NCBI GenBank assembly: GCA_030390025.1
Contig: CM059431.1
Coordinates: 119,352,001-119,416,000, forward strand
DNA length: 64,000 nt
Direction of reading: 5' to 3'
Origin: Squalus acanthias
Lineage: Eukaryota
Made by a program: the position numbers and the translations under genes. Numbering within the stretch: position 1 is the stretch's first letter; each line of letters begins with the position of its first letter. Positions 9,565 through 43,601 of the stretch are shown here, piece by piece. The notes below the pieces were generated by a model that was not told the origin of the DNA, searched no databases, and saw only the letters and a program-made list of their open reading frames with translations.

Positions 9565-10642
9565 GCTGATGTAATAGATGGCAGGTCAAGTAGAGATCAG
9601 AGGAGCAATCTGTCAATGTTGTGATAGTTACTAGCAATGTGGTGAGAATGGCTTCCGAGGTTGCAGAAAAGACTTGCAAACTCTAGATACCTAAATCTGT
9701 GTTCAAAATGCACTCAGCAAAAACCTTTCCCATAGGCAGGTAAGCAGGTATCACGTGGGAGTTTTTATTGGGATATCCATGCTCTGCATTAATGACCTCG
9801 ATCAATGGCCACTGAGATTCCACCTCAGGTTGACAGACGTGGTTTTCCAGTCTGCGTGATTCCCGCGGTCATCCAGTGAACTTCAAAATGTCTGGTTAAA
9901 ATCTCTGTTAAGGGTCTGACAACAAGGATTTATTGAGCTTAATTAGGTCGCCCACCTCTGCCGTTCGGGTCTGTGGCACGCTGGCAAACGCGCCCAAGTT
10001 AAAGACGCGAGGGGGCGGGATGACGGAGCGTTCCCGACGTTCTCCCATTTTCTGCTACTTTTACTGCTGATCCATCTCCAAACCCGCACACACGGCACCA
10101 GGAAAATTTCGGCCAAGGAGTGTGATAAGTTAAAATGTTTATTAAAACCAGCATCAATGCATAAAGGCAGGACAGGGTCTATTGCCCACTTAAACATTCT
10201 ATACTCAACTCACGTAGCATAAGAAATAAAACAAGTGAATTAGTTTTTAGCCCTCCAGATAGCAGTGATAAAATAGTGTTATACATAAACGCAGAGATCA
10301 GAGAAGCTTGTCGCAAAAACAAAGTCATTAATGACTTTAATTTTCACGTATACTGGGAGAAGCAGAACAGCTCGGGTCCCAAAGGCAGCAAATTTCTTGA
10401 GTGTATTCGGGACATCTGTCATTAGTTAGACCTGCCCTGGCATGTTTAGGTTTTCAAATTTTTTGCGTGGCAAGTTGCTGAAAGTGCGAGCTGATAACAT
10501 TACACCGAGAGGGAAACAGGGCATCTGGGACCAGAGTGAACAGAGCAAGAAACTGTGTATCTGCTTAACCAATTAGATTGAAGGATTGTGAAATTAACAG
10601 CGTGAGGACTGAGAAGGAAGTGAAAATTAGAGTGGGTGAATG

Positions 10643-12265
10643 TGTAAGGGATCCTCTCCTGACCCTGCGTGTCTCGTAGCCTGTGAGGTTCACGCGGCTC
10701 TGTGCAGCCTGTATGTCAGTGCGGGTCTAGGCCTGGTCTCCAGCCAGTCTGGGAACACTAGACACCCCTGTGAGTGGTTCGAATCACTCTCCCTTACGGT
10801 TCTAGACACTGGACTTAGATGCGAGAGCAGTAATGGAGATAAAACTCATGTAGACTTGGTTTGAACGGTACGAAATGGAAAATCTTTATTGCATGATACT
10901 TAAAATTATGAAATACATGTCATATGCACAGATTAATGACAGTACAATCTTACAAACAGTTATAATCACTCTTAGGGAAACGAGGAACGACCGGCACAAC
11001 GTAAATAGGGCACACATTACAAATATCCTTAATCTTTAAACCCTCCCCTATCAATAACTATCCTAAAACTAGCTTCGTAGGATCCCGAGACTCATGCTCA
11101 CCACTCGTAATAACTCGGAGAAATCCCGAATAGCTGATCGGATGTTTTTCACCGCAGCACCCACGTGTTGGTCAGGAGATCTCCTGGTCCCACTTGTTTA
11201 CTGCTTCTGCTGCTCGGTCAGTCGGCTGGACCGTCCGCTGTAGTGAAGACCTCTGTTGGTTGGATACAGGGTATGGTGGAGCACCGTTGTCAATATCGCT
11301 GATACGATGTGTTTGCACAGTCCAGTTATCATTGATGCAATATGTCTTGTTAAAGAAGAAAACTTCCTGTCGAGAAGACTTGGCTGATCGACCTACAGGC
11401 GCGGTCGGGATTTACTGACCGTGGCGATGGATAAGGTCTTCTTCTCTTCTCCTCTCATCTCATCTCATCTCATCTCATCTCATCCCGGGCCTTCGGTTCA
11501 GCTGCCAGCTACCAACATAGGTCTTTGCAACAGTCTTTTACCCAGGAGCAGCCACGAGGTTACGAATCGACCGGATAAAACACAGGAGCAGCCACGATGA
11601 TAACAGCAGCAAGCGGCAAGAGTCAAGAGCAAAAGAGCAAGAGAGCGAATGGACGGTTTGGGCCTGCAATTATAGTGCACAGTTCTTCCGTTTCCCGCCC
11701 AACTACAATGTCCATTCTTTTGTTTAAGGTTTGGCGCCCAAAAATGTCCTGTATGGGTGATCTCTGTCCTTAATGGGTTTCGGGGCTACTCCTGAATGTT
11801 TGAGTACCTGTTAATATTTCTCCCATTGTTAAATCGGTCGGTGTTCCCCCTGGAGGGGTTTGGGGCTTCCAAGTGTCCTGTATACCTACCTGCTAACGGC
11901 TCTCTCATCGTAGAGCCGTTGGGAGTTTACATATTAATGTCCTTTGGATGGGCCCTTGATGGCTTTCCTTTGTACCTGGGAGACCGATCCCAGTATCGAT
12001 GTTTATACTGTAAACCCATAATGTCCTGTGTATTGTCTTCACTGTGCTGAATCGTTATCGATCCTGCAAAAATGTTTATTGGAACGCCATCTTGTCTGCC
12101 TGCTGAAAAGTCTCGAATGTTCTGTCACGCGGTGCGGCGGCCATTTTACAGGCTGCTTGTGTCCAATTTAAACCTGACAGCATTCCGCTGAAATAAAAGC
12201 TGTTTTGAACGAAACTTGTGTTTTCTCCTTATAAAAATGAAATCGCGATAATTGCGAATTCTACA
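10643..12265 (-). repeat. 3' LTR
   Basis: Direct repeat of 18307-19929; AATAAA on minus strand at 10885-10890. Confidence 0.97.
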
Positions 12266-12277
12266 GTCCCTCCTGTT
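12266..12277 (-). promoter_or_regulatory. Polypurine tract
   Basis: Minus-strand AACAGGAGGGAC abuts the TG of the 3' LTR; short and impure. Confidence 0.7.
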
Positions 12278-12693
12278 GATGCGAATAACTCCGCTTATCG
12301 TATCAAAAAATCTCAGTGGTGAGCAATCTTATCTCGATTTCACTCCGAATCCAGTAAATTAATCCCATAAAATTTTAACTTCACTAGGGTCTCTGTGTCG
12401 TCCTCATTTCCCAAGAAAAAATCACATTTTATATCACCGTAGGCATCATTTGCCCTTAAACTTACACCACTTGTTTTCCTTCCCGGCGTAACCAGGCCGA
12501 TACCTCACGCATCACCTGTATATTTGTCTTTTATTCAAGGGAAGGAAAAACAAAACCCAAAAAACCGAACAATCAACACCATCACCAAAATAAACAAATC
12601 CCGACTCTTAAACATGTCGAGTTTCCAACGTATTTACAATGAGTACAAACTTCCGCGGCGCACGTGGCGAGCGGGAGTGACGCCATTTTCCCA

Positions 12694-15045
12694 TTACACT
12701 GCGCTCTCATCGTGCACGCGCACGTAACGTTCTCGCCACTCTCCCGTGTTCTCATGCTTGGTGAGGCGCTTGTCTCTTTTACAATGTATGAACAAAAGGT
12801 ATACTACAATAAACACTTGACAGACGACTAAAATGTGGGAGGCTATTCTGACCCATGAGGGCACTTCAATATTCGTGAACAGATTCCACCACGGTGGAAC
12901 CACTATGTCCAAAATGTCTGTACCTATCTCGACGGTTTTCTGTTCTAATGTATAGAAATGCTTTTGTGACACCGCGACGGCTTTTAGAAGTTTGGTTAAA
13001 TGCTCGGGGAGAGGGGGAATGAGGTACCCAAAATGTGCGACAAATCGCTGCAAGTCGGTAAAATTCTCTTTTACTGTGAGATGAACAGTGGATGGTTCAG
13101 GGATTGGGATAATTCGCTGTTGTGCTACTTGAACTTCAGCCCTGGGTTTAAAACAGAAACTGCTGTCACTCACCGGATACCGGCTACGGTTTCCATGCTG
13201 GTAGTGTTGCGCTGCAGTGGTAACACAATATGTTCCACCCCCGATGTATGCTACCTGCGGAGGCACATGATCTTGTGCCATTGCCTCCATGGTGCAATTC
13301 ATGGACTTGGCGCCAGCCGTTCTGAACCCGCACTGTGGTGTTAAAAAGGCATTCAAGTGCTGGGGGCACAGTATTATGTGTGCTCCCCTGCCACGACAAC
13401 CAGAGAGATCTGTACCTGTCATCGTTTGCTCCCAGCGGATGACGTAAGGTGGAACTGCTGCATAATGAATGTGGGCTCCCCCCTGAATGACACCAATGTT
13501 CTCTACCCGATACACCGGGGCGGGCTTTGCTGTGTTGCCCAAAACCGGCATGCGTAAAACTATACCCATAATGGTATGGTTTGAACGTCCGCAGTCCACG
13601 GGGACTGGGTAAGCTTCTGAAGCTAGCCTGAGCTGGCACGGACTTAATGCGTTCTGAAAAGGGTGGAGCGCCCGCAGGTGTTTGTTACTTATCCAGGACG
13701 GAACCAAACCTTGTTTTAAATCCTCCAAATTACTGCGGCCCTCGCCCAGTAACCACGCCCCGTAAAGCACGCACACCTCGTTCTGCGCAGCTTGATCGGA
13801 TGCATTCCGATCTTCCCTAATCAGGGCATTTACCGTACGCGCATGTTTCTCCAGCTCTGCTATAATCTCTTTTAAGTGTAGTGTCATGGCTTGGTCCTCG
13901 TGCAGACCCGACCCTACCACTTTATTCTCATCTGTAAGAATATCCTTTAACTGTGTTTTTAAACCATTAATCTGGGTCTGCAGCTCCACACTGTCTAGAG
14001 CGTTGACCACAGATGTCCCTGTGTTAAAAGCAGTGAACGCATCGTTCACCAAACCCCTTCTTTGCCTCCCTACTTGGTCCAAAACTTCCTGCGGTGCGGT
14101 GTATAAACTTGTCTTATCGATTTCTGCAAAATCAAATTCGTAAAATTGCCTGAACATCTTGGTCAACAGGATCTGGTACAACTGTTCCGTCTTTTTGGGG
14201 CACCACTCTGGTAACCGTACCTCAGTGAGATTTAAAATCACCGAGGCCACCGCGTAATGTACCCCCTGAAATAGTATCTGGTCTGTGGGGACCAGTACCA
14301 AACCGTTCCCGGGTCCCTTACTAGTTTTAGGGCACCCTTCTTCCTCAGTTAGAACTACCGGAATCGTGGGCGGGGCTTTGCGTGGGCGCGTAATGAGCTC
14401 AGTGGCATTTACTGGGATCGGAGAGTATGGGGCTCCGCACCCCCTGGTGCTCGCATCCCACCTCATCCCCTGTCCGTTATCCTGCCACTGGTTAATAAAG
14501 AATATGGAGATGCCTTTGGGGCAAACGTACTTTGACCCCCACATACAAACATAAATCCCCTCATCTGGTTCCCACCATTTGTCCCAACAGACTTTCACTT
14601 GTCCATCTGTCCCCGTAATTGTCCGATGGGTATTATTACCCAGTCGCTCCCACTCAACCGAAGAGTTCCTCATAGTTTTGCTCAGCTTTCGCAGCCACCA
14701 CCATCGGCTCAATGGGACATTCCCACTGCAGGTCAAACAAATCCGTTTGCCGACGGTGACGCTGATCCTGGGTGCGATGATCCGTACTTTGGGGCACATT
14801 AAAGAAGTCTCTTTGTAGGCGAACCCCGATGTGCTGGAATACTCCGTTGAGTTCGTTCCCAGCCATCCTGGCCACCTTCCCTTGTGGAAATAGGTGCTGG
14901 TCCCTTCTGCCTTCCGTCTTCCGGTCCCATCCACCGCGATGGGGGCCGTGTCCCCGGAACATCCAAACACCACGACATCCTTGGTGAGGCCCCGATAGGC
15001 CAATCCACATCCGATTGCCACGAGCAAAACTAGAAGTCGTTCCAT
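12694..15045 (-). CDS. env: Envelope glycoprotein, class I F-like fusogen with N-terminal Ig-like domain (783 aa)
   Basis: Signal peptide, N-glycan sequons, furin site RQRR (aa 327-330) followed by fusion peptide GLVNDAFTAF.., heptad region, Cys-rich domain, TM aa ~734-753, 30-aa tail; open frame. Confidence 0.9.
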   Translation of the reverse strand: MERLLVLLVAIGCGLAYRGLTKDVVVFGCSGDTAPIAVDGTGRRKAEGTSTYFHKGRWPGWLGTNSTEYSSTSGFAYKETSLMCPKVRIIAPRISVTVGKRICLTCSGNVPLSRWWWLRKLSKTMRNSSVEWERLGNNTHRTITGTDGQVKVCWDKWWEPDEGIYVCMWGSKYVCPKGISIFFINQWQDNGQGMRWDASTRGCGAPYSPIPVNATELITRPRKAPPTIPVVLTEEEGCPKTSKGPGNGLVLVPTDQILFQGVHYAVASVILNLTEVRLPEWCPKKTEQLYQILLTKMFRQFYEFDFAEIDKTSLYTAPQEVLDQVGRQRRGLVNDAFTAFNTGTSVVNALDSVELQTQINGLKTQLKDILTDENKVVGSGLHEDQAMTLHLKEIIAELEKHARTVNALIREDRNASDQAAQNEVCVLYGAWLLGEGRSNLEDLKQGLVPSWISNKHLRALHPFQNALSPCQLRLASEAYPVPVDCGRSNHTIMGIVLRMPVLGNTAKPAPVYRVENIGVIQGGAHIHYAAVPPYVIRWEQTMTGTDLSGCRGRGAHIILCPQHLNAFLTPQCGFRTAGAKSMNCTMEAMAQDHVPPQVAYIGGGTYCVTTAAQHYQHGNRSRYPVSDSSFCFKPRAEVQVAQQRIIPIPEPSTVHLTVKENFTDLQRFVAHFGYLIPPLPEHLTKLLKAVAVSQKHFYTLEQKTVEIGTDILDIVVPPWWNLFTNIEVPSWVRIASHILVVCQVFIVVYLLFIHCKRDKRLTKHENTGEWRERYVRVHDESAV

Positions 15046-15329
15046 CCTTCCTTGGTTCCTGTGATCAGATAGAATGAGGTAGCCAGCCTCGCAAAAAGTC
15101 TCTGGCTTTTGTGAAGGGTGAGCGGGTCCCCTGACCTCGCCTCACGTAAACTTCAACGTTTGCTAAATAGACTTCCTCTAAACCTAGCCTTAAAACTCCC
15201 ATCATTTTATCGTTATCTGTTAAAAACACTACAAACTTAACCTTATTAAAACTACTTAAAACTTTAAACTAAAACTTAAAACCTTAAACTAATAACTTTA
15301 CAATGCCGCCCGTTCTCAGGGCGGCCCCT

Positions 15330-16490
15330 TTAAATCCTGAGAAGGCTGCTGCGAGCTCTTCCCGACGGTGGGAGGGCACTGACCCTTCCCTCTGATCTGC
15401 CGCAGCCTGTTGCTGCGCTGACCCTTTCCTCTGATCTGCCGCAGCCTGTTACTGCTTCGATGTGGCCTGTCTCTACCCGGGTTATCTTAACCTGAAACTT
15501 ACGCCCTGGGGCAGCCTGTGGACCTGACCACATCTTCCTGGGCTGGGGTACTCTGCTTGACCTACGGGGAATTGCTATGGGCGGGGGCTCCGTGACGGAC
15601 GGACCGGGTCCCGAGACCTTCAACGGGATGACCTGGGGTTCCATCACAGGCGCCAGCCCCGCCTCCGCTGACTCCGCCTCCCTAACCTCGGGGCTGGCAG
15701 TTCGGGGCCCCGCCCTGCTCGGCCCAGCAGGCGGCCCTTCACTCGCGAACTCTGCCTCCCCTGAGGACTGGACGTTCAAAGCGGGCGGCCACACCTCTGG
15801 GAACCACATAGCGGCTGGCCCGGCCTCCTCTAGCTCCTTCCTCCTGCTGTCGGGACCTGCAGCTTGTGTGTCCACCCCGTATGGATCTCTACCTAGCGGC
15901 CCCAATCCTTCCAGACCGTTCCTCTGAAACCACCCGTCATCATCACTATGCTCATCTGCACTATCCTCATCTGACCAGGGTACCCTGGGGTCCTCGTCAT
16001 CTAACCCCCAACTCCAGAAAAACGCTGCATGATCGTCCGGGATGTCCCTTCCCCTGATGCAAGCTGCTACGCCTGCCGGTGTGCCTTGTGGTCCTACCTG
16101 GGGCTGTGTTTTCCCACTCGCAGGTCTGGCCCCTCCCTTAAGACAGGCCACCGCCCCTGCTTGTTTCTGTGAAATCTCACCTGCTGGAGGCTGCAGATTT
16201 CTATCCTGTTTTAAATCCTTATACTCCCTGCTCCTGGCTACCCTGTAGGCTGCTTTTATCTCTCTAAGCTGCCCTTCTAGCCTGAGCACGTCTAACTTTC
16301 CCATTGATCGGGCGTTCTCCTCCCGCAGGGTCTGCTCTCTAAGCTGCCCTTCCAGCCCATCTATTTTCCCTATTAAGCGGGCGTTCTCCTCCCGCAAGGC
16401 CTGCTCTTTTAACCTGGCCTCCTCACCGCAGACCCCCTCCTGTGCGTGTCTTTTAAAAGGACACAGGTAGGCAGGCTGCGTGGACTCTAG
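15330..16490 (-). CDS. Non-Pol ORF in frame with gag (putative readthrough extension, ~386 aa; coiled-coil plus low-complexity)
   Basis: Frame is open from 16490, directly after the gag UGA, through ORF 15330..16397; the track start is a TTG, and the first in-frame ATG lies further downstream. Confidence 0.7.
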   Translation of the reverse strand, partial: LESTQPAYLCPFKRHAQEGVCGEEARLKEQALREENARLIGKIDGLEGQLREQTLREENARSMGKLDVLRLEGQLREIKAAYRVARSREYKDLKQDRNLQPPAGEISQKQAGAVACLKGGARPASGKTQPQVGPQGTPAGVAACIRGRDIPDDHAAFFWSWGLDDEDPRVPWSDEDSADEHSDDDGWFQRNGLEGLGPLGRDPYGVDTQAAGPDSRRKELEEAGPAAMWFPEVWPPALNVQSSGEAEFASEGPPAGPSRAGPRTASPEVREAESAEAGLAPVMEPQVIPLKVSGPGPSVTEPPPIAIPRRSSRVPQPRKMWSGPQAAPGRKFQVKITRVETGHIEAVTGCGRSEERVSAATGCGRSEGRVSALPPSGRARSSLLRI

Positions 16491-18302
16491 TCATGGGGCA
16501 CTATTAGACGGTCCTGCGGCACCTACGGGGCCGGTTGCGACCGCCACCTGTCCACGCGCATTCAAAACCATCTTGCGCATGACTCCTAACACTGCTTCGA
16601 GGTCTTCAGGAGAGGTGGGTGCCTTTGCTTCCTTAGCCGGGACAGGCGCCTGGGTTCGGACCGCGGGATTTTTATCCTTGGAATCCTTCCAAGGGTTCCT
16701 GCAGTGCTTGCGCCAGTGCCCTGTCTTCCCACACCCGTAACAGGCATTACTTGCCTGTGGGGCGCGATTACCCTCCTGATGCCACTCTCTTTGAGTCGGG
16801 GCTGCGGGTCGTACCTCATGTACTCTTCCCTTAAAGGGACGTGTCGTCATACCCCTTATGTTACGGTAACCTAACGTGAGTCGATTCAAGACCGACTCTT
16901 CCGTAAGGTTGAGGTCATTGGGATCGAACCAGGCTTTTGCCTGCTCTCTAACGGCTGGTAAACTGTTGGCTATTATGCACCTAAGCCAATGAATTAAAGC
17001 GGCGCCTTCCACATCTTCGCGTTCGGGCGCACCTAGACAGCTGCGCTCATATACTGGCCACAGCCTGTCGGCAAAAACCTTCGGGGGTTCTCCCTCCATC
17101 TGCACTGTCTGTCCCACTCTAGCAAACGGACCTCCGTCGTTCGCTCCCACTACTTCTAGGACCTCATTTTTCAATTCCTCATAACTTTTATTACCCCTCT
17201 TGCTATCGCCTGAGAGACACTGAAGGACCGAGCTATCTAAAGAGAACAGCAGCATTTTTGCTGTCTCCCCATCATCGCAGCCGTTGATGGCTGCGGCTTG
17301 CTCAACTTCCCTAAAATGTACGGAAGGGTCGTCTATCTCGGTCAGCTTCCTTACGTGGTTTATCATGGCCCTCAGCTGATGTGAACTGTGAGGCAACACC
17401 AGCTGTCCGAGGAGATCCCCCGGTTCTTCCCCACCGTTTCTGCTTGGGCCCCTTTTAATCCCCGTTACTGGATACAACGATCCCTTTTCTACTTCCTTTT
17501 CAACGGGCTCTTTTGTTTCTTCCGTTGCTTCCTCCCTAACCCAGGTTTCTGAATAGCTGGGTGGCGCGGAGGGCGCAGTGGCTACTACTTCTTCTGCTTT
17601 ACTTGGTGGGGAATTTCTAAATCTCTCATTTACTAGCGGCTGGCGTGCCGACGGATTAATAAGGCACACCATGCCGTTCGCATTATTCACGGCCTTTTTG
17701 AGGCTCTCTATCTCTTTTTCGCAGGCGCTATGGTCGGCTCCCTGAAACTTATCCTCAAGGGCCAACTTATACGCCGACCTAACCCCCATTAAGCTCTCTT
17801 CTTGAGTTCTTATCTGGGCAGCTTGACGGTTACATCTTTCCTTCATCCTACTCTCGTTTAATTTTGCTTCAGTGATCTGGCACTCGAGATACTCTACCCT
17901 TGTTTTAAGGTAGCTGGAGACTTCCTGGCTTTCCTGGCGTAACTCATTTAAACTCTTAATGAGCGCCTCCCCTCCAGAAACCTTCTCCTCCATTTCCTCC
18001 TCTAGATGCTTGATTCGAGCGGTTAGCGCTGTATTGGTCTGGTTTGAAATCTGAACCTGCCTTTTGTAGCACATAAGCCAGACTGCTTTCTCAACTGCCT
18101 TTTTATGCTCCTTACTATCCGTCCACCTTTCAGCTGCCTCTAGTGGGCTCTTATCCGCTAACAATTCGCTTATCCACTTTTTCGTTAGATTAACCTTTCC
18201 AAACACGTAATCCGCTATCTTTTCCTGCATAACATTTCGTACAGTCATTCCAAAATCTAACACACTACCCTCTCGCTGCCAGCCTCGTGCCGCGGTCGCC
18301 AT
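16491..18302 (-). CDS. gag: Gag polyprotein with long coiled coil, late domains, CA and CCHC zinc knuckle (603 aa)
   Basis: CYGCGKTGHWRKHC knuckle (16701-16742), MHR-like QMEGEPPKVFADRL, PSAPPSY motif. Confidence 0.92.
   Translation of the reverse strand: MATAARGWQREGSVLDFGMTVRNVMQEKIADYVFGKVNLTKKWISELLADKSPLEAAERWTDSKEHKKAVEKAVWLMCYKRQVQISNQTNTALTARIKHLEEEMEEKVSGGEALIKSLNELRQESQEVSSYLKTRVEYLECQITEAKLNESRMKERCNRQAAQIRTQEESLMGVRSAYKLALEDKFQGADHSACEKEIESLKKAVNNANGMVCLINPSARQPLVNERFRNSPPSKAEEVVATAPSAPPSYSETWVREEATEETKEPVEKEVEKGSLYPVTGIKRGPSRNGGEEPGDLLGQLVLPHSSHQLRAMINHVRKLTEIDDPSVHFREVEQAAAINGCDDGETAKMLLFSLDSSVLQCLSGDSKRGNKSYEELKNEVLEVVGANDGGPFARVGQTVQMEGEPPKVFADRLWPVYERSCLGAPEREDVEGAALIHWLRCIIANSLPAVREQAKAWFDPNDLNLTEESVLNRLTLGYRNIRGMTTRPFKGRVHEVRPAAPTQREWHQEGNRAPQASNACYGCGKTGHWRKHCRNPWKDSKDKNPAVRTQAPVPAKEAKAPTSPEDLEAVLGVMRKMVLNARGQVAVATGPVGAAGPSNSAP
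18288..18301 (-). promoter_or_regulatory. Primer-binding site, tRNA-Arg(UCG)-like
   Basis: TGGCGACCGCGGCA begins 5 nt after the 5' LTR and is complementary to the recalled vertebrate tRNA-Arg(TCG) 3' end ...TGCCGCGGTCG-CCA. Confidence 0.75.
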
Positions 18303-18306
18303 TTTC

Positions 18307-19929
18307 TGTAAGGGATCCTCTCCTGACCCTGCGTGTCTCGTAGCCTGTGAGGTTCACGCGGCTCTGTGCAGCCTGTATGTCAGTGCGGGTCTAGGCCTGG
18401 TCTCCAGCCAGTCTGGGAACACTAGACACCCCTGTGAGTGGTTCGAATCACTCTCCCTTACGGTTCTAGACACTGGACTTAGATGCGAGAGCAGTAATGG
18501 AGATAAAACTCATGTAGACTTGGTTTGAACGGTACGAAATGGAAAATCTTTATTGCATGATACTTAAAATTATGAAATACATGTCATATGCACAGATTAA
18601 TGACAGTACAATCTTACAAACAGTTATAATCACTCTTAGGGAAACGAGGAACGACCGGCACAACGTAAATAGGGCACACATTACAAATATCCTTAATCTT
18701 TAAACCCTCCCCTATCAATAACTATCCTAAAACTAGCTTCGTAGGATCCCGAGACTCATGCTCACCACTCGTAATAACTCGGAGAAATCCCGAATAGCTG
18801 ATCGGATGTTTTTCACCGCAGCACCCACGTGTTGGTCAGGAGATCTCCTGGTCCCACTTGTTTACTGCTTCTGCTGCTCGGTCAGTCGGCTGGACCGTCC
18901 GCTGTAGTGAAGACCTCTGTTGGTTGGATACAGGGTATGGTGGAGCACCGTTGTCAATATCGCTGATACGATGTGTTTGCACAGTCCAGTTATCATTGAT
19001 GCAATATGTCTTGTTAAAGAAGAAAACTTCCTGTCGAGAAGACTTGGCTGATCGACCTACAGGCGCGGTCGGGATTTACTGACCGTGGCGATGGATAAGG
19101 TCTTCTTCTCTTCTCCTCTCATCTCATCTCATCTCATCTCATCTCATCCCGGGCCTTCGGTTCAGCTGCCAGCTACCAACATAGGTCTTTGCAACAGTCT
19201 TTTACCCAGGAGCAGCCACGAGGTTACGAATCGACCGGATAAAACACAGGAGCAGCCACGATGATAACAGCAGCAAGCGGCAAGAGTCAAGAGCAAAAGA
19301 GCAAGAGAGCGAATGGACGGTTTGGGCCTGCAATTATAGTGCACAGTTCTTCCGTTTCCCGCCCAACTACAATGTCCATTCTTTTGTTTAAGGTTTGGCG
19401 CCCAAAAATGTCCTGTATGGGTGATCTCTGTCCTTAATGGGTTTCGGGGCTACTCCTGAATGTTTGAGTACCTGTTAATATTTCTCCCATTGTTAAATCG
19501 GTCGGTGTTCCCCCTGGAGGGGTTTGGGGCTTCCAAGTGTCCTGTATACCTACCTGCTAACGGCTCTCTCATCGTAGAGCCGTTGGGAGTTTACATATTA
19601 ATGTCCTTTGGATGGGCCCTTGATGGCTTTCCTTTGTACCTGGGAGACCGATCCCAGTATCGATGTTTATACTGTAAACCCATAATGTCCTGTGTATTGT
19701 CTTCACTGTGCTGAATCGTTATCGATCCTGCAAAAATGTTTATTGGAACGCCATCTTGTCTGCCTGCTGAAAAGTCTCGAATGTTCTGTCACGCGGTGCG
19801 GCGGCCATTTTACAGGCTGCTTGTGTCCAATTTAAACCTGACAGCATTCCGCTGAAATAAAAGCTGTTTTGAACGAAACTTGTGTTTTCTCCTTATAAAA
19901 ATGAAATCGCGATAATTGCGAATTCTACA
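18307..19929 (-). repeat. 5' LTR
   Basis: Direct repeat of 10643-12265; TATA-like 19334-19338, splice donor at 18765, AATAAA 18549-18554 (all minus strand). Confidence 0.97.
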
Positions 19930-20782
19930 AATGCAATGTCAAATCAGCTACAGAAAGAGAAATAAAGAAAGGGAAAGAAAGACTGGATTATGAGAGAAAA
20001 AGAGGCAAAGGAAAAGGGAAAAAATTAAAATTTGCCTTTTTTAAATCTCCAATAGTTAAAACCTGAAGGAATGAGACTTCACACTTGTAATAGTTAATTT
20101 TCAGTGCAAGAGAGGTTGATTGGCAGTAATTAACACATCATGTCATTAAAAGGGTACGTAGACTGAAATGGACAAGACTTAACTTTCTGTGGCGAGTTTA
20201 GTTCATATCTACGCACGAATACAGCAACTTTATGTAATTCAATGCATTTCATTGGTGAGGCAGATGGCAACATGCCATTTTCATGAATCTAATGATGGAG
20301 CAGCGCATGTCGGACAGCAAGTTTTGGATATTTGAGTTTAACCGCGCATCTGCCCCTCGCCTGTAGTTACTGTACCATTTGCGCATAAATAACGGCGAGC
20401 GCCATTAGCTTCACTTTTAAATCAACAGCAAGAAATAAAAGGAGAGAAAGGAACCCTTAATACTACAAAACTTTTCATTTTAACCAGCATTTTAATAGGA
20501 AATCAGACAAAACTTGCTGGGAAAAGCCCTCCATAGGGACACAACCAGGGGAGGGAATATAGATAGAAGGGAACAGTCAGGACTGGGAACAGTCCAAACA
20601 TAGGCACAGAGTCTGGGGACGGGAATATGGATAGAAGGGAACAGTCAAAGTTGGGAACAGCCCCTTGAGATGGACAGAGCCATCCATACAGGGGGATTGT
20701 AAATAGGTGAACAGTCCCATTGAGTAATCTCAGCCCAGCACATCACGGGGAGTCCTGGGTGTCCCTATTCACCACTGTGACC

Positions 20783-23616: not shown

Positions 23617-24483
23617 AAAGTTACCACCACAGTTTCACAACTTTAGCTGTTATAGTCTTTCTCTAGCCTTGCTCCTGTCCATATAGTGAAGGCAGTGAGA
23701 TTAGAGGAGAGCAAGGAGTTATGGAAGAGAGATGAGGAAATAATCGAAGATGGCCTTTGCCAGTAATCTAAACCTTCAGAGTTGCCTAGGCCTCATGTGA
23801 TGGCAAGATTGATGGGGTAACGTTGGGTGGAGAGTTTATGGGCTGGGTGAGATTGAGGACAGGAGGGTGAAGATGTCGGAGGAAGAAAACTCAATGAGGA
23901 AGTTGCCATGGGCCTTGGGAGGACATCAGACAATGAGGACGTTAAGATGCTCAAATGGGGCGAAGGTGCTGAAGCAGGGGACAGGTTGAGACAGGCCATA
24001 AAGGTGAAGACCACGCTGTTGCCCGGTCTGACTGTGCTTGAATGTAGGTATACTACTTACGTTGCTCTCTCTTCTGGTTGATACAGGTAATTCCTGAGTT
24101 ATCATGGTAACAGGCCTTTCTCCACCTAGGACAGGGATAATGATGCTTAGCCATGGAATTGTGCAGTGAGGCTTCACTGGTGCCTGGTGGTAGGTAAGGT
24201 TAATGCCACAACTCATACTAGCTGCTCCTCAGAGGAACTCACACTTCAAATGGCAAATAGGATGAATTGGAAAACCAACGGAGGAAACATTTTTCTCATA
24301 TCAATCTACTAACATGAAGTTCAGACCTCAGTAAAAGGCAATTTCACTCTCTACCAGCGCAAATGTTCTGTTTTTTTTTTCCTTTCTAAATTAGGTCATG
24401 TTACAAATTAAATTGACCCTTATTTTAAGCTTGTAATTGTATCGGTTTTTGGTTAAAATGAAAACAAACTCTCTGTGCCACTC

Positions 24484-27054
24484 TCGACATCTCTCTTCAG
24501 CAGCACCGACGCACTCTATCTCAAAGCTGTCCGGGTCCACAGTTCCATTTCATCCTTCGACTCATCCGACGCTTCAACAAAAAACTTTTCTTCTTCCTTT
24601 CCGATGTCAAGGATTGCAAGCTTCAACAACTCTTGGACACTAAAGCCCCTCCGGAACCTTCTTCCCCTTCACTTTCCTCTGACCCCATCCCTTCTCCCAA
24701 TCTCACTCCCTGCCGTGTTTTCACTATCCCCTCTGACCTTCCCCTCTCTGACTCCGAACGATCAGTCCTCAGCAAAGGCCTGACCTTCATCCCCTTACGC
24801 CCCCATCTCAATGAATTTCGAGCTCGGCACGATGCTGAGCTCTTTTTCCGCCGCCTCCGTCTCCGTGCCCACTTCTCTGGCCAGGAGTCTTCCCCCCGCA
24901 CGGCTGACCCTTTCTCCCGCTTTCAGAATTCTCGTTCCACCTGGACCCCTCCCTCTGGCCTCTTACCCTCTCTTGATCTTTTCATTGCTAACTGCCGCCG
25001 TGACATCAGCCAGCTCAATTTCTCTGCTCCCCTCACTCACTCCAACCTACCTCCCTCTGAACTTGGAGCACTCCATTCTCTCCGATCCAACCCTGACATT
25101 GTCATTAAACCTGCTGACAAGGGTGGCGCTGTTGTTGTTTGGCTAACCGACCTCTACCTAGCGGAAGTTGAACGCCAACTCTCTGACACCTCCTCCTACC
25201 TCCACCTGGACCATGACCCCACTACCGAACATCAAGCCACCGTGTCCAAGACTGTCACTGACCTCATCTCCTCTGGAGATCTTCCCCCCACGGCTGCCAA
25301 CCTCATAGTTCCCCAACCCCGCACAGCCCGCTTCTACCTCCTTCCCAAGATCCACAAACAGGACTGCCCCGGTAGACCCATCGTTTCAGCCTGTTCTTGC
25401 CCCACGGAACTTATCTCTTCCTATCTCGACTCTATTTTTTCTCCCCTTGTCCAGTCTCTTCCCACCTACATCCGCGACTCTTCCGATGCCCTCCGCCATT
25501 TTAACAGTTTCCAGTTTCCTGGCCCCAACCGTCTCCTCTTCACTATGGATGTACAATCCCTCTACACCTCCATTCCCCACCAGGATGGCCTGAGGGCGCT
25601 CCGCTTCTTCCTTGAACAGAGGCCCAACCAGTCCCCATCCACCACCACCCTCCTCCGCCTGGCTGAACTTGTTCTCACATTGAACAACTTCTCCTTTGAC
25701 TCTACCCATTTCCTCCAAATTAAAGGTGTTGCTATGGGTACCCGCATGGGTCCTAGCTATGCCTGCCTTTTCGTGGGATATGTGGAACACTCTTTGTTCC
25801 AGTCCTACTCGGGTCCCCTCCCTCACCTCTTTTTCCGGTACATTGATGACTGTATCGGTGCCGTCTCCTGCTCTCGCCCTGAACTAGAACATTTCATTCA
25901 CTATGCTTCCAATTTCCACCCTTCCCTCACCTTCACATGGTCCATCTCCGACTCTTCCCTTCCCTTCCTCGACTTCTCCATCTCCATCTCTGGGGATAGG
26001 TTATTGACTAACATTCACTACAAGCCCACCGACTCCCACAGCTACCTGGACTACACTTCCTCCCACCCCGCCTCCTGTAAGGACTCTATTCCATTCTCCC
26101 AGTTTCTCCGTCTCCGCCGCATCTGCTCTGATGATGCCACCTTCCATACCAGTGCTTCCGACATGTCTTCCTTTTTCCTCAACCGAGGATTCCCCTCTAC
26201 CGTGGTCGACACGGCCCTCGACCGTGTCCGTTCTATCTCCCGCACATCTGCCCTCACCTCTGCCCCTCCCTCCCGGAACCACGATAGGGTTCCCCTTGTC
26301 CTCACCTTTCACCCCACCAGCCTCCACATTCAACGGATCATCCTCCGCCATTTCCGCCACCTCCAGCGTGATCCCACCACCAAACACATCTTCCCCTCAC
26401 CTCCCCTTTCAGCATTCTGTAGGGACCGCTCCCTCCGCGACACCCTAGTCCACTCCTCTACCACCCCCAGCACCCCTTCCCCTTCGCCCGGCACCTTCCC
26501 GTGCAAGCGCAGGAGATGCAACACATGCCCTTATACCTCCCCTCTTCCCACTGTCCAGGGCCCCAAACACCCCTTCCAGGTGAAACAGCGATTTACTTGT
26601 ACTTCCTGCAATTTAGTATACTGTATTCGCTGCTCACGATGTGGTCTCCTCTACATTGGGGAGACCAAACGCAGATTGGGTGACCGCTTTGCGGAACACC
26701 TCCGTTCAGTCCGTAAGGGGGACCCCGAGCTCCCGGTGGCCTGTCACTTTAATTCACCGCTTCACTCCCACTCTGACCTCACCGTCCTCGGCCTATTACA
26801 CTGTTCCACGGAAGCTCAGCGTAAGCTCGAGGAACAGCACCTCATCTTTCGTTTAGGCACGCTACAGCCCTCTGGACTCAATATCGAGTTCAACAATTTT
26901 AGATCATAACCTCAGCTCCAATCACATTTATATTTTATTTTATCCACCCTTTTATTTGTCCCCCCCCCACCTTTTTTTTCCTCCTAGAAGCTGGCAGCTG
27001 TCCTTCATTCTGCCAGTGGATTTCACACTTCATTCAGCCTTAATCTGTCACATT
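24484..27054 (+). mobile_element. Penelope-like retroelement, 5'-truncated
   Basis: RT plus GIY-YIG ORF; flanked by a 14-bp direct repeat TCTCTGTGCCACTC (24470-24483, 27055-27068). Confidence 0.9.
24633..26909 (+). CDS. Penelope-like RT + GIY-YIG endonuclease (open frame, no native start)
   Basis: IKPADKGG, YLLPKIHK, MDVQSLYT, GVAMGT, RYIDD; NLVYCIRC..C..LYIGET..RF.EH endonuclease; frame stays open upstream to the truncation point. Confidence 0.92.
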   Translation: MDTKAPPEPSSPSLSSDPIPSPNLTPCRVFTIPSDLPLSDSERSVLSKGLTFIPLRPHLNEFRARHDAELFFRRLRLRAHFSGQESSPRTADPFSRFQNSRSTWTPPSGLLPSLDLFIANCRRDISQLNFSAPLTHSNLPPSELGALHSLRSNPDIVIKPADKGGAVVVWLTDLYLAEVERQLSDTSSYLHLDHDPTTEHQATVSKTVTDLISSGDLPPTAANLIVPQPRTARFYLLPKIHKQDCPGRPIVSACSCPTELISSYLDSIFSPLVQSLPTYIRDSSDALRHFNSFQFPGPNRLLFTMDVQSLYTSIPHQDGLRALRFFLEQRPNQSPSTTTLLRLAELVLTLNNFSFDSTHFLQIKGVAMGTRMGPSYACLFVGYVEHSLFQSYSGPLPHLFFRYIDDCIGAVSCSRPELEHFIHYASNFHPSLTFTWSISDSSLPFLDFSISISGDRLLTNIHYKPTDSHSYLDYTSSHPASCKDSIPFSQFLRLRRICSDDATFHTSASDMSSFFLNRGFPSTVVDTALDRVRSISRTSALTSAPPSRNHDRVPLVLTFHPTSLHIQRIILRHFRHLQRDPTTKHIFPSPPLSAFCRDRSLRDTLVHSSTTPSTPSPSPGTFPCKRRRCNTCPYTSPLPTVQGPKHPFQVKQRFTCTSCNLVYCIRCSRCGLLYIGETKRRLGDRFAEHLRSVRKGDPELPVACHFNSPLHSHSDLTVLGLLHCSTEAQRKLEEQHLIFRLGTLQPSGLNIEFNNFRS

Positions 27055-37437: not shown

Positions 37438-39480
37438 GTCCAACCTTGGCTAACAAGAGAAGTAAAAGATAGTATTGGATCAAAGGAAGAGGCTTATAAT
37501 GTTGCCAAAAAGAGTAGTAAGCCTGAGGATTGGGGGGAGAATTCAGCAAAGGAGGACCAAGAAATTGATAAAGAAAGGGAAAATAGAATATGAGAGTAAA
37601 CTAGCGAGAGAAATAAAAACAGACTGTAAAAGCTCCTATAGATATGTAAAAAGGAAAAGATTAGCCAAAGTAAATGTGGGTCCCTTACAGACTGAGACAT
37701 GAGAAATTATAATGGGGAATAAGGAAATGGCAGAGCAATTGAACAAATACTTTGTGTCTGTCTTCACGGAAGAAGATGCAAAAAACTTCCCAGAAATAGT
37801 GGAGAACCAAGGCTCTAACGAGAATGAGGAACTGAAAGAAATTAGTATTAGTAAAAAAATAGTACTGGAGAAATTAATGGAACTGAAAGCCAATAAATCC
37901 CCTGGACCTGATGACCTACATCCTAGGGTTTTGAAAGAGGTGGCTATAGAGATAGCGGATGCAATGGTTGTAATTTTCCAAAATTCCATAGATTCTGGAA
38001 TGGTTCCCGTAGATTGGAAGGTAGCAACTGTAACCCCACTATTTAAGAAAGGAGGGAGAGAGAAAACGGGGAACTACAGACCAGTTAGCCTGACATCAGT
38101 AGTAGGAAAAATGCTAAAATCTATTATTAAGGATGTGGTAACAGGGCACTTAGAAAATAATAATGAGATTGGGCAGAGTCAACATGGATTTATGAAAGGG
38201 AAGTCGTGTTGGACAAATCTGTTAGAATATTTTGAGGTTGTAACTCGCAGAATAGATAAGGGGGAACCAGTGGATGTGGTGTATTTGGATTTTCAGAAGG
38301 CATTCCAAAAGGTGCCACACAAGAGGTTATTAAACAAAATTAGGGCTCACGGGATTGGGGGTAATATATTAGCATGGATTGAGGATTGCTTAACGGACAG
38401 AAAAGAGAGAGTAGGAATAAACGGGTCATTTTCGGGTTGGCAGGATGTAACTAGTGGGATACCGCAAGGATCAGTGCTAGGGCCTCAGCTATTCACAATC
38501 TACATCAATGATTTGGATGAGGGGACCAAATGTAATATATCCAAGTTTGCTGATGATACAAAGCTGGGTGGGAATGTAAGTTATGAGCAGGATGCAAAGA
38601 GGCTTCAAGGGGATATAGACAGGCTAAGTGAGTGGACAAGAACATGGCAAATGGAATATAATGTGGTGAAATGAGAAGTATTCACTTTGGTAGGAAAAAT
38701 AGAAAAGCAGAGTATTTTTTAAATGGTGAGAAATTGAGAAATGTTGATGTTCAGAGGGACCTGGGTGTCCTTGTACATGAATCACTCAAGTTAACATGCA
38801 GGTACAGCAAGCAATTAGAAAGCAAATGGTATGTTGGCCTTTATTAAAAGAGGATTTGAGTATAAGAGTAAAGACATCTTAATGCAATTATATAGGGCCC
38901 TGGTGAGACCACACCTGGAGTATTGTGTACAGTTTTGGTCTCCTTACCTAATGAAGATATACTTGCTATAGAGGGAGTACAACAAAGGTTCACGAGACTG
39001 ATTCCTGGGATGGGGGGATTGTCCTATGAGGAGAGATTGAGTAGACGAGGCCGATATTCTCTAGAGTTTAGAAGAATGAGAGGTGATCTCATTGAAACAT
39101 ACAAAATTCTTACAGGGCTTGACAGGGTAAATGCTGGGAGAATGATTCCCCTGGCTGGGGAGTCTAGAACCAGGGGTCACAGTCTCAGAATAAGTGGTTG
39201 GCCATTTAGGACTGAGATGAGGAAACATTTCTTCACTCGGAGGGTGGTGAATCTTTGGAATTCTCTACCCCAGAGAGCTGTGAAGACTCAGTCGTTGAGT
39301 ATATTCAAGACAGAGATCGATAGATTTTTGAATATTAAGCGAATCAAGGGATATGGGGATAGTGCTGGAAAGTGGAAATGAGGTAGAAGATCAGCCATGA
39401 TCTTATTGAATTGCGGAGCAGGCTCGAAGGGCTAAATGGCCTACTCCTGCTCCTATTTCTTATTTTCTTATTTTCTTATG
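37438..39480 (+). mobile_element. CR1 LINE 3' half (degraded ORF2)
   Basis: ORF 37712..38674 with NYRPVSLTS, YLDFQKAF, PQGSVLGP, KFADD; (TATTTTCT)n tail. Confidence 0.93.
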
Positions 39481-41263: not shown

Positions 41264-43601
41264 ACTACAACAAAAAGAAAATACTGCAGATGCTGGAAAT
41301 CTGAAATAAAAACAGCAAATGCTGGAGATACTCAGCAGGCCAGGGAGCATCTGTGAAGAGAGAAACAGAGTTAACGTTTCAGGTCGATGACCTTTCGTCA
41401 GAACTGGAAAAAGCAGGAAATGGAACAGATTTTTAAGCAAGGGCAGGGGCTGGGAAAGGGGGGAGGGGATGAAAGAACAAAAAGGAAGGTCTGTGATAGA
41501 AGGCAGGAGAGGTTAAGAGACATTAAGAGATATTCAAGGCAAAAGGAGATGGTAATGGGACAGGTTAAGTAACAAAGGATGGCTCGAGATGAAGTGTGAA
41601 TTGCACTGGCAGAATGAAAGACAGCTGCCATGTGGGAGAGAAGAAAAAAAGACACAGACAAAAGGTGTGGATGAAAAATATATATATGATAGGGGCCGAG
41701 GTTATGATCTGAAATTGTTGAACTCTATGTTGAGTCCAGAAGGCTGTAAAGTGCCTAATCGAAAGATGAGGTGCTGTTCCTCAAAGTTCCGCTGAGCTTC
41801 AGTGGAACAATGCAAGAGGCCGAGGACAGTGAGGTCTGAGTCGGAGTGGAGCGAAGAATTAAAGTGACAGGCGACCGGAAGCTCGGGGTCCCCCTTACGG
41901 ACTGAACGGAGGTGTTCCACAAAGCGGTCACCCAATCTGCGTTTGGTCTCCCCAATGTAGAGGAGACCACATCGTGAGCAGCGAATACAGTATACTAAAT
42001 TGCAAGAAGTACAACTAAATCGCTGTTTCACCTGGAAGGGGTGTTTGGGGCCCTGGACAGTGGGAAGGGGGGAGGTATAAAGGCATGTGTTGCATCTCCT
42101 GCGCTTGCACGGGAAGGTGCCGGGCGAAGGGGAAGGGGTGTTGGGGGTAATAGAGGAGTGGACCAGTGTGTCGCGGAGGGAGCGGTCCCTTCGGAATGCT
42201 GAACGAGGAGGTGAGGGGAAGATGTGTTGTTGGTGGGATCATGCTGGAGGTGGCGGAAATGGCGGAGGATGATCCGTTGACTGTGGAGGCTGGTGGGGTG
42301 AAAGGTGAGGACAAGGGGAACTCTATCGTGGTTCCGGGAGGGAGGGGCAGGGGTGAGGGCAGAAGTGCGGGAGATAGAACGGACACGGTCAAGGGCCGTG
42401 TCAACCACAGTAGAAGGGAATCCTCGGTTGAGGAAAAATGAAGACATGTCAGAAGCACTGGTATGGAAGGTGGCATTGTCAGAGCAGATGCAGCAGAGAC
42501 GGAGAAACTGGGAGAATGGAATCGAGTCCTTACAGGAAGCGGGGTGGGAGGAAGTGCAGTCCAGGTAGCTGTGGGAGTCAGTGGGCTTGTAGTGAATGTT
42601 TGTCAATAACCTATCCCCAGAGATGGAGATGGAGAAGTCGAGGAAGGGAAGGGAAGAGTCGGAAATGGACCATGTGAAGGTGAGGGAAGGGTGGAAATTG
42701 GAAGCAAAGTGAATGAAATTTTCTAGTTCAGGGCAAGAGCAGGAAACCGCACCGATACATTCATCAATGTACTGGAAAAAGAGGTGAGGGAGGGGACCTG
42801 AGTAGGACTGGAACAAAGAGTGTTCCACGTATCCCATGAAAAGGCCGGCATAGCTAGGACCCATGCGGGTTCCCATAGCAACACCTTTGATTTGGAGGAA
42901 GTGAGTGGAGTCAAAGGAGAAGTTGTTCAATGTGAGAACATGTTCAGCCAGGCGGAGGAGGGTGGTGGTGGATGGGGACTGGTCGGGCCTCTGTTCAAGG
43001 AAGAAGCGGAGCGCCTTCAGGCCACCCCGCTGGGGGATGGAGGTGTAGAGGGATTGTACGTCCATAGTGAAAAGGAGACGGTTGGGGCCAGGAAACTGGA
43101 AACTGTTAAAGTGGCGGAGGGCGTTGGAAGAGTCGCGGATGTAGGTGGGAAGAGACTGGACAAGGGGAGAAAAAATAGAGTCGAGATAGGAAGAGATAAG
43201 TTCCGTGGGGCAAGAACAGGCTGAAACGATGGGTCTACCAGGGCAGTCCTGTTTGTGGATCTTGGGAAGGAGGTAGAAGTGGGCTGTGCGGGGTTGGGGA
43301 ACTATGAGGTTGGCGGCCATGGGGGGAAGATCTCCAGAGGAGATGAGGTCAGTGACAGTCTTGGAAACGGTGGCTTGATGTTCGGTAGTGGGGTCATGGT
43401 CAGGTGGAGGTAGGAGGAGGTGTCGGAGAGTTGGCGTTCAGCTTCCGCTAGGTAGATGTCGGTTCGCCAAACAACAACAGCACCACCCTTGTCAGCAGGT
43501 TTACTGACAATGTTGGGGTTGGATCTGAGAGAATGGAGTGCTGCAAGTTCAGAGGGAGGTAGGTTGGAGTGAGTGAGGGGAGCAGAGAAATGGAGATGGC
43601 C
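41264..43601 (-). mobile_element. Penelope-like retroelement, frameshifted, with complete 3' end
   Basis: Close paralog of 24633..26909; 10-bp TSD GATAAAGCCT (41254-41263, 43602-43611). Confidence 0.92.
41369..41406 (-). ncRNA. Minimal type I hammerhead ribozyme motif
   Basis: Minus strand cAGTT-CTGACGA-aAGGTCatcGACCT-GAAACGTT-AACT: intact core, 5-bp stem II, palindromic ACGT stem III. Confidence 0.75.

Follow-up and report, generated by a model that had tools for sequence, protein, structure and literature searches.

Introduction

Suppression of the gag-pol stop codon is described for murine leukaemia virus (MLV), walleye dermal sarcoma virus (WDSV), snakehead retrovirus (SnRV), swim bladder sarcoma virus of salmon (SSSV) and zebrafish endogenous retrovirus (ZFERV), the contexts listed being UAGGGA, UAGGGC, UGAAGA, UGACGA and UGAAGU (PMC13517186). 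The context UGA-CUAG, found at AQP4, OPRL1, OPRK1, MAPK10 and in alphaviruses, gives readthrough in reporters and works without downstream structure; UGA-CUA alone gives 1.5% (PMC4132726). Here I describe this context at the gag stop of a long terminal repeat (LTR) element in a 64,000-nucleotide stretch of the Squalus acanthias genome (GCA_030390025.1, contig CM059431.1, positions 119,352,001 to 119,416,000; hereafter the window). The element occupies 10643-19929 of the window minus strand (9,287 nt) and carries gag, a 386-codon open reading frame behind the gag stop (ORF2) and env, but no enzymes.

As in MLV, WDSV, SnRV, SSSV and ZFERV, the family has an in-frame stop that falls between the zinc knuckle and the DTG motif of the protease. 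Unlike the contexts listed for retroviruses in the available part of PMC13517186, this one is UGA-CUA(G), and no conserved 3' structure was found in the window family. The same seven nucleotides occur in AQP4 and alphaviruses, but here they stand at a retroviral gag-pol junction. For the element as a whole, the closest described system is mouse IAP 1-delta-1, a non-autonomous, high-copy endogenous retrovirus (ERV) whose fusion protein reportedly acts in cis (PMC6466679). Both have an in-frame internal deletion and a fusion of Gag to a Pol remnant, need helper proteins and have been amplified beside autonomous helpers. The deletion of IAP 1-delta-1 takes part of gag together with pol and leaves one reading frame, whereas the window element has complete gag and env genes, a leaky-type stop ahead of the fused part, and, in the place of the deleted sequence, a gag fragment from another lineage.

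The reading that I favour, with a probability of roughly 0.55, is that TGA-CTAG is the gag-pol junction of the family, which a few percent of ribosomes likely pass, and that the window copy is part of a lineage that has lost its pol enzymes and depends on helpers, the frame behind the stop likely being kept open by selection for translation in cis, and not for the sequence of a new cargo.

The gag stop and its conservation

On the minus strand the junction reads GCC CCA TGA CTA GAG TCC, with the stop at 16493-16491. The frame behind it is open for 386 codons, through to 15330, and readthrough would give a product of 603 + 1 + 386 = 990 amino acids. From base composition, the chance of finding CTAG after a given TGA is about 0.0035. 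Sequence and frame check thus agree with the first-pass annotation, which had proposed a fusion of about 990 amino acids across a TGA-CTAG stop. That annotation also placed 31 codons between the stop and an open reading frame beginning at 16397; the distance holds, but the codon at 16397 is TTG, not ATG, and the first in-frame ATG of ORF2 is codon 63, at 16304.

A 30-nt pattern taken from the knuckle has 2,179 exact matches in the 3.7-Gb genome. As an unbiased sample I took the first 30 copies anchored at the knuckle; all lie on contig C1, and their junctions played no part in the choice. TGA-CTAG is present in 30 of 30, of which 21 run into a protease and nine into ORF2. In the 21 pol-type copies it leads to LLDTGAS, which is what had been predicted if the signal were an ancestral gag-pol junction that the window copy has retained. 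In-frame stops between knuckle and protease are thus present in pol-bearing members. One pol-type comparator has a 1,494-residue frame with protease, reverse transcriptase (RT), tether, RNase H, integrase and SH3 domains; profile matches in the pol-bearing sibling lie at 470-558 (RT_RNaseH_2) and 650-793 (RNase_H), and the protease match begins at codon 17-22. A second sample, consisting of 90 of the first 100 ORF2-type junctions listed (contigs C1-C2), was examined for the breaks just past the stop that would have spoken against readthrough: the first 40 codons are open in 89 of the 90 copies.

Further gag lineages were found by outside queries, namely B, 64% identical in amino acids to the window gag, and C, which is older and decayed. 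Among pol-type copies the stop context is TGACTAG in 21/21 copies of lineage A, TGACTAA in 5/5 of B and TGACTAG in 13/16 of C, the remainder being three single variants; TGA-CTA is therefore kept in 40 of the 42 copies. Between lineages, the ratio of non-synonymous to synonymous substitution rates (dN/dS) over codons 1-12 after the stop is 0.09 (A-B), 0.19 (A-C) and 0.25 (B-C, with an interval that spans 1), so that two of the three comparisons exclude 1. Since the first methionine after the stop in pol-type copies is codon 24, these codons are under purifying selection upstream of it, as translation through the stop predicts. The stop of pol-type copies is very probably read through. Genome-wide, TGACT[A/G]G stands at 1,292 of the 1,316 ORF2-type junctions with an initial T. 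This count alone is weak because the copies are young; the agreement between gag lineages carries more weight. By two patterns there are 1,081 or 1,316 ORF2-type junctions, and there are 1,903 pol-type ones, all of these genome-wide counts being lower bounds.

A similar junction occurs in lokiretroviruses. Of the 17 places where TGACTAG is listed in the supplement of PMC7947760, four run in frame to LLD(S/T)GSE when translated by eye; as line breaks may mask matches, at least four consensus sequences have TGACTAG before the protease. The main text of that paper, as far as available, nowhere mentions readthrough, a stop codon or a frameshift, nor does the available text of the Odin paper mention readthrough or a stop codon. 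In the accessible part of the 2026 review (PMC13517186) lokiretroviruses are nowhere mentioned and the retroviral contexts listed are others, and literature searches found no paper on the UGA-CUA gag-pol junction of the present family. A likely mechanism of Pol expression, UGA-CUA readthrough, can be named for a deep retroviral lineage and some lokiretroviruses, on which these papers are, in the parts available, silent. Long Gag-Pol fusions number 0 among 1,341 candidates in the protein collection, which is weak evidence. None of the records that hold the sequence is entered as RNA. Contigs of two studies span the junction; their status as RNA is a guess, and they are not used as evidence. A search for look-alikes in other genomes yielded nothing.

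Hairpins are predicted after the stop, but they differ among lineages, with folding z-scores mostly between +1.4 and -2. For the hairpin at 16439..16467 the z-scores are mostly -0.5 to -2. This hairpin has both arms in 88/90 ORF2-type copies and a pair probability of about 1 in the window copy; it shows no covariation, and a function is unsupported. No conserved 3' RNA stimulator of readthrough emerged from these predictions.

Two further junctions may be recorded. In one ORF2-type copy of the sample (L214), a deletion has removed the stop and fuses the gag linker directly to ORF2, the frame being kept. A search with the retropepsin family returned a separate, high-copy, epsilon-like ERV family (L031-L050), distinct from that of the window, with gag-TGA-CGCAG in frame with a 1,190-residue pol; it is a second UGA-C junction in this genome.

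Make-up of ORF2

The features of the element, on the minus strand and in the order of transcription, are as follows.

18307..19929 (-): 5' LTR, 1,623 nt, TG...CA, 100% match to the 3' LTR
18284..18301 (-): primer-binding-site-like stretch, begins TGG (sequence inspection)
16491..18302 (-): gag, 603 aa, ATG at 18302, ends TGA; N-terminal coiled coil, capsid, one CCHC knuckle
16487..16493 (-): TGA-CTAG gag-pol junction, likely readthrough site, conserved across copies and lineages
16459..16490 (-): retained first 11 pol codons (alignment to pol-type siblings)
16439..16467 (-): predicted hairpin, 6-7 bp, +24 to +52 after the stop, spanning the deletion junction
16134..16458 (-): insert, about 108 codons long, in place of pol codons 12-1233 (about 3.7 kb; alignment)
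16212-16421 (-), within the insert: end of the lineage C Gag coiled coil, in Gag's frame, with a 23-codon duplication
15330..16133 (-): Pol C-terminal tail past the integrase SH3, 267 codons, acidic, Pro/Gly-rich, reaching the pol stop
15528..15566 (-): RRSxRxPQP(R/K)xxW motif, putative chromatin tether
12694..15045 (-): env, 783 aa, furin site RQRR, predicted paramyxovirus/pneumovirus F-like fold, extra N-terminal region
12266..12277 (-): polypurine-tract-like stretch (sequence inspection)
10643..12265 (-): 3' LTR, 1,623 nt
10639-10642 and 19930-19933, flanking the element: target duplication AATG, 4 nt

Aligned as DNA to pol-type copies, the window copy matches for 32 nt past the stop and then again from the Pol tail onwards, about 325 nt further on; residues 120-386 of ORF2 are 84% identical to residues 1234-1494 of the comparator Pol. 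With 11 + 267 codons aligned, 278 of the 386 codons (72%) are Pol-derived, which does not bear out the description of the frame as a non-Pol protein. In the window copy the insert lines up, in the frame of Gag, with the coiled coil of lineage C Gag at 79-83% nucleotide identity. In a sister copy of lineage B (L100) the insert reaches 87-92% over about 225 nt at 14 of 15 donor loci. ORF2 is therefore made of 11 Pol codons, an insert derived largely from the Gag coiled coil of another lineage, and the Pol tail. The proposal that the junction now loads a different, non-Pol cargo is not supported by this result, ORF2 being an internally deleted Pol with a Gag-derived insert; it also meets the lack of significant purifying selection on the ORF2 amino acids described below.

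An unrelated captured gene was rejected, as the sibling alignment explains the frame. A Pfam search with ORF2 gave one weak coiled-coil match, and the ESM Atlas nothing above 0.78. Two lineage C copies (L165, L167) have pol deletions of their own, in which the protease jumps to the RNase H or integrase region.

Probable exchange with helper copies

By gag lineage, the 90 ORF2-type copies divide into 64 of A, 19 of B and seven of a further lineage, D. The B and D gags are about 74% and 61% identical in nucleotides to the window gag, and the first 84 nt of their inserts are 85-99% alike; overall, the insert is 85-99% alike across gag lineages that are 61-98% alike. The gag of the commonest ORF2 haplotype is 98% identical to a pol-type gag, and each of ten ORF2 tails tested is 88-99.5% identical in nucleotides to one of 17 pol-type tails. 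Repeated recombination with helpers would be the simplest account of this turnover of gag and tail around the insert. The insert itself has changed: about half of the lineage B insert is gone in lineage A, it has been duplicated and triplicated in frame, and three different tails are joined to it in frame.

Shortly past the 3' LTR of an ORF2-type copy (L095:7772-10000) stands a pol-type piece beginning some 50 codons before the end of gag. Elsewhere, as at G000:C1:143657923-143673398, copies stand in runs, and their spacing of about 7.7 kb suggests tandem arrays with common LTRs.

Selection on the frame and on the protein

Length variants were scored as anchor-to-anchor lengths between copies. 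In lineage A (63 copies, L214 being left out for want of a junction), 11 of 11 shared length variants of ORF2 are in frame, as are four of eight private ones. By contrast, in the mostly non-coding stretch past ORF2 only five of 12 shared variants keep the frame (Fisher p 0.005). Because tails are traded with helpers, the ORF2-specific part was also counted alone. In the 84 of 89 copies that have the tail anchor, seven of seven shared length classes are in frame (p 0.0005 at an expectation of one third), against seven of 14 private ones (Fisher p 0.047). An overlapping gene as the cause of the in-frame changes was rejected, since each of the five other frames is interrupted by stops common to several copies (1-21 columns). 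The full length of ORF2 is open in 58/64 copies of A, 7/19 of B and 3/7 of D.

The amino acids give a different picture. In 57 open copies of lineage A, dN/dS of the tail is 0.95 (0.74-1.26), and it is 1.06 in pol-type copies, compared with 0.30 for gag and 0.03 for the integrase C-domain. Taken together, the ORF2 frame looks protected, its amino-acid sequence mostly does not, and the stop signal appears to have been allowed to weaken. The pol-type tails (L091:5600-6381, L228-L243) are acidic, low-complexity stretches of 260-280 residues, variable in length, in frame and with dN/dS of about 1; the lineage C tail has only about 80 residues around the basic motif.

That motif, RRSxRxPQP(R/K)xxW, is present in 85/90 ORF2-type and 17/17 pol-type tails, with variants in lineages C and D, and is kept across four tail lineages that are otherwise about 35% alike. 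I take it to resemble acidic-patch arginine anchors. A basic motif, RRRSPR, is also found in the integrase tail of the Pol that matches SnRV. Conservation of the motif explains the in-frame tail in helpers.

Explanations

If TGA-CTAG is read through as proposed, a few percent of ribosomes would pass the TGA, giving Gag-Pol in helper copies and a 990-residue Gag-insert-tail protein in copies of the window type, the enzymes of which would be supplied in trans. Recombination with co-packaged helper RNA would renew gag and tail. The frame is likely kept open because its translation would help the element to be copied: an open frame could benefit its own RNA either by protecting it from nonsense-mediated decay or by cis-preferential packaging, as reported for IAP 1-delta-1. 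Readthrough inhibits nonsense-mediated decay in a manner that depends on the distance to the mRNA end (PMC5360307); RNA protection by readthrough also draws on a review passage about long retroviral 3' untranslated regions. Several observations weigh against this reading. ORF2 is broken in 6/64 copies of A, 12/19 of B and 4/7 of D, by lesions that look private. The 11/11 count is partly inherited, because tail variants are common to pol-type copies; the independence of the seven ORF2-specific classes is incomplete, and microhomology may make jumps that keep the frame more likely. In ORF2-type copies of lineages B and D the context is TGA-CTGG in 23 of 26, predicted to be weaker; the base changed is the position that mattered in OPRL1 reporters (PMC4132726), and the change fits a relaxed need for readthrough. 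Finally, dN/dS of the insert is 0.61 (0.29-1.32) in lineage A and 0.39 (0.14-1.39) across lineages (80 copies), below 1 though not significantly, which leans towards a role of the protein.

Such a role would exist if readthrough put a second coiled coil and the integrase-tail motif on a minority of Gag, which could then anchor capsids to chromatin or bring them into helper particles. Gag-borne chromatin tethers have precedents in foamy virus and MLV p12 (PMC9040877). The motif persists in ORF2-type copies and in all four tail lineages; the insert lies in Gag's frame, even when duplicated or triplicated, and its dN/dS against the donor gag is 0.25 (0.12-0.53); shared variants comprise 15 synonymous and 22 non-synonymous changes, private ones 9 and 30 (p 0.14). 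I nevertheless consider a functional new fusion unlikely, as the motif is also selected in helpers and arrives in ORF2 copies by recombination, its own dN/dS interval in ORF2 copies is 0.10-5.98, its likeness to arginine anchors is presumed, the donor comparison includes time spent as a true gag, and lineage A has lost about half of the lineage B insert. At the other extreme, ORF2 may be a neutral relic, a deletion product that spreads only through intact gag, env and cis signals and whose frame is open through youth and helper recombination. Identical LTRs, the relaxed TGA-CTGG of older lineages, a tail dN/dS of about 1 and the near-identity of the tails to pol-type ones would all agree with it. 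It is made improbable by the seven of seven shared length classes in frame where pol has no counterpart, by the in-frame joining of three different tails, and by an insert that has outlasted gag lineages down to 61% identity. Least credible of all is that TGA is a true stop, Pol and ORF2 being translated from spliced mRNAs that use an internal ATG (codon 24 of Pol, codon 63 of ORF2). Both ATGs exist and foamy pol is made from a spliced mRNA (PMC9143442), but the codons upstream of the Pol methionine are under purifying selection, the protease match begins before it, and three lineages have retained both TGA-CTA and the frame.

The more than 1,000 copies form a natural experiment on what makes retroelements without pol retain an open frame after gag, the options being RNA protection, cis-acting translation and a real Gag-borne tether. 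A bolder and doubtful extension is that the recoding site of this satellite acts as a switch by which a few percent of Gag molecules gain an extra coiled coil and the chromatin-tether motif of the integrase, a module of enough use to have passed between several helper lineages; UGA-CUA readthrough would then be a shared, undescribed route to Pol in F-enveloped retroviruses, including some lokiretroviruses.

Relationships of the element

The first-pass annotation had taken the element to be of gamma/epsilon type. The RT lies outside the clade that holds the epsilon-like family of this genome (L031), and the Env is F-like, so that this assignment has to be given up. For the RT, a quick tree was followed by a careful, finished tree on 17 rows picked from it; Loki-type rows were recognised by their CPFG/TPFG motif, with no named reference, and protein P0020 was tied to the SnRV text by eye. 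RT identity is 51-54% to elements of amphibians, coelacanth and others; it falls to 43.5% with the SnRV-matching protein and to 35-39% with rows of Loki type. Over whole Pol, a Loki-type row scores 559 bits against 480 for SnRV. In the careful tree the Loki-type rows form a 100/100 clade without the query, and a grouping of the query and its four nearest rows with them is rejected (p-AU 0.005). The RT joins the same node as SnRV, where the branching order is not settled; an exclusive clade with SnRV is rejected (p-AU 0.014).

Lokiretroviruses (PMC7947760; bioRxiv 2024.03.25.586437), in the parts of these papers available, share with the family a coiled-coil Gag, a tether with RNase H, an F-like Env and an RxxR site. 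Of these, the tether and RNase H in Pol, the F-like Env (in a low-confidence model) and the coiled coil ahead of the capsid were found here. The RT signature differs, being of LPQG type in the window family and CPFG/TPFG in Loki. The element resembles a lokiretrovirus in layout and is not assigned as one. Zebrafish Bhikhari, a non-autonomous, gag-bearing relative of lokiretroviruses, has neither pol nor env in the description available, whereas the window element has env. Similar RT motifs and a basic integrase-tail motif are shared with SnRV and with lineage I of the elephant-shark CmiERV (PMC4422223; PMC12193657), and SnRV-like ERVs are known from chondrichthyans. SnRV uses UAG-GGC, in contrast to UGA-CUAG in the window family.

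Gag, Env and neighbouring elements

Gag matches the zf-CCHC profile at E 0.087. In a low-confidence model its best fold matches are, without exception, capsids of retroviruses or Arc (E about 0.01), and a helix at 69-183 stands ahead of the capsid, with weak Pfam coiled-coil matches. Two gag homologues were found, one in a skate and one in a sawshark. The sawshark protein (P0005), a PTGER4c gene model that ends in a lineage-C-like Gag piece, is probably a gene-model artefact. The first gag ATG (18302-18300), four bases past the LTR, overlaps the TGG primer-binding-site-like stretch, which I take to be of tRNA-Arg identity; the skate homologue has the same start position.

A fold search with Env returned the F proteins of respiratory syncytial virus and human parainfluenza virus 3 (best E 3.6e-9), with TM-scores below 0.2 and a pLDDT of 57; no Pfam F match and no PDB sequence match was obtained. 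Across three copies, env has a dN/dS of 0.06. The extra N-terminal region of Env (window ~14360-15000, minus strand) has a weak Ig_3 match (E 0.43) and is under strong purifying selection (dN/dS 0.06 on the three copies).

Elsewhere in the window, a Penelope-like element occurs twice in inverted orientation, at 24462-26909 (+) and 41675-43604 (-), the two copies being 92-95% alike and giving weak RT and GIY-YIG matches, and LINE RT fragments lie at 37703-38674 and 55451-56455.

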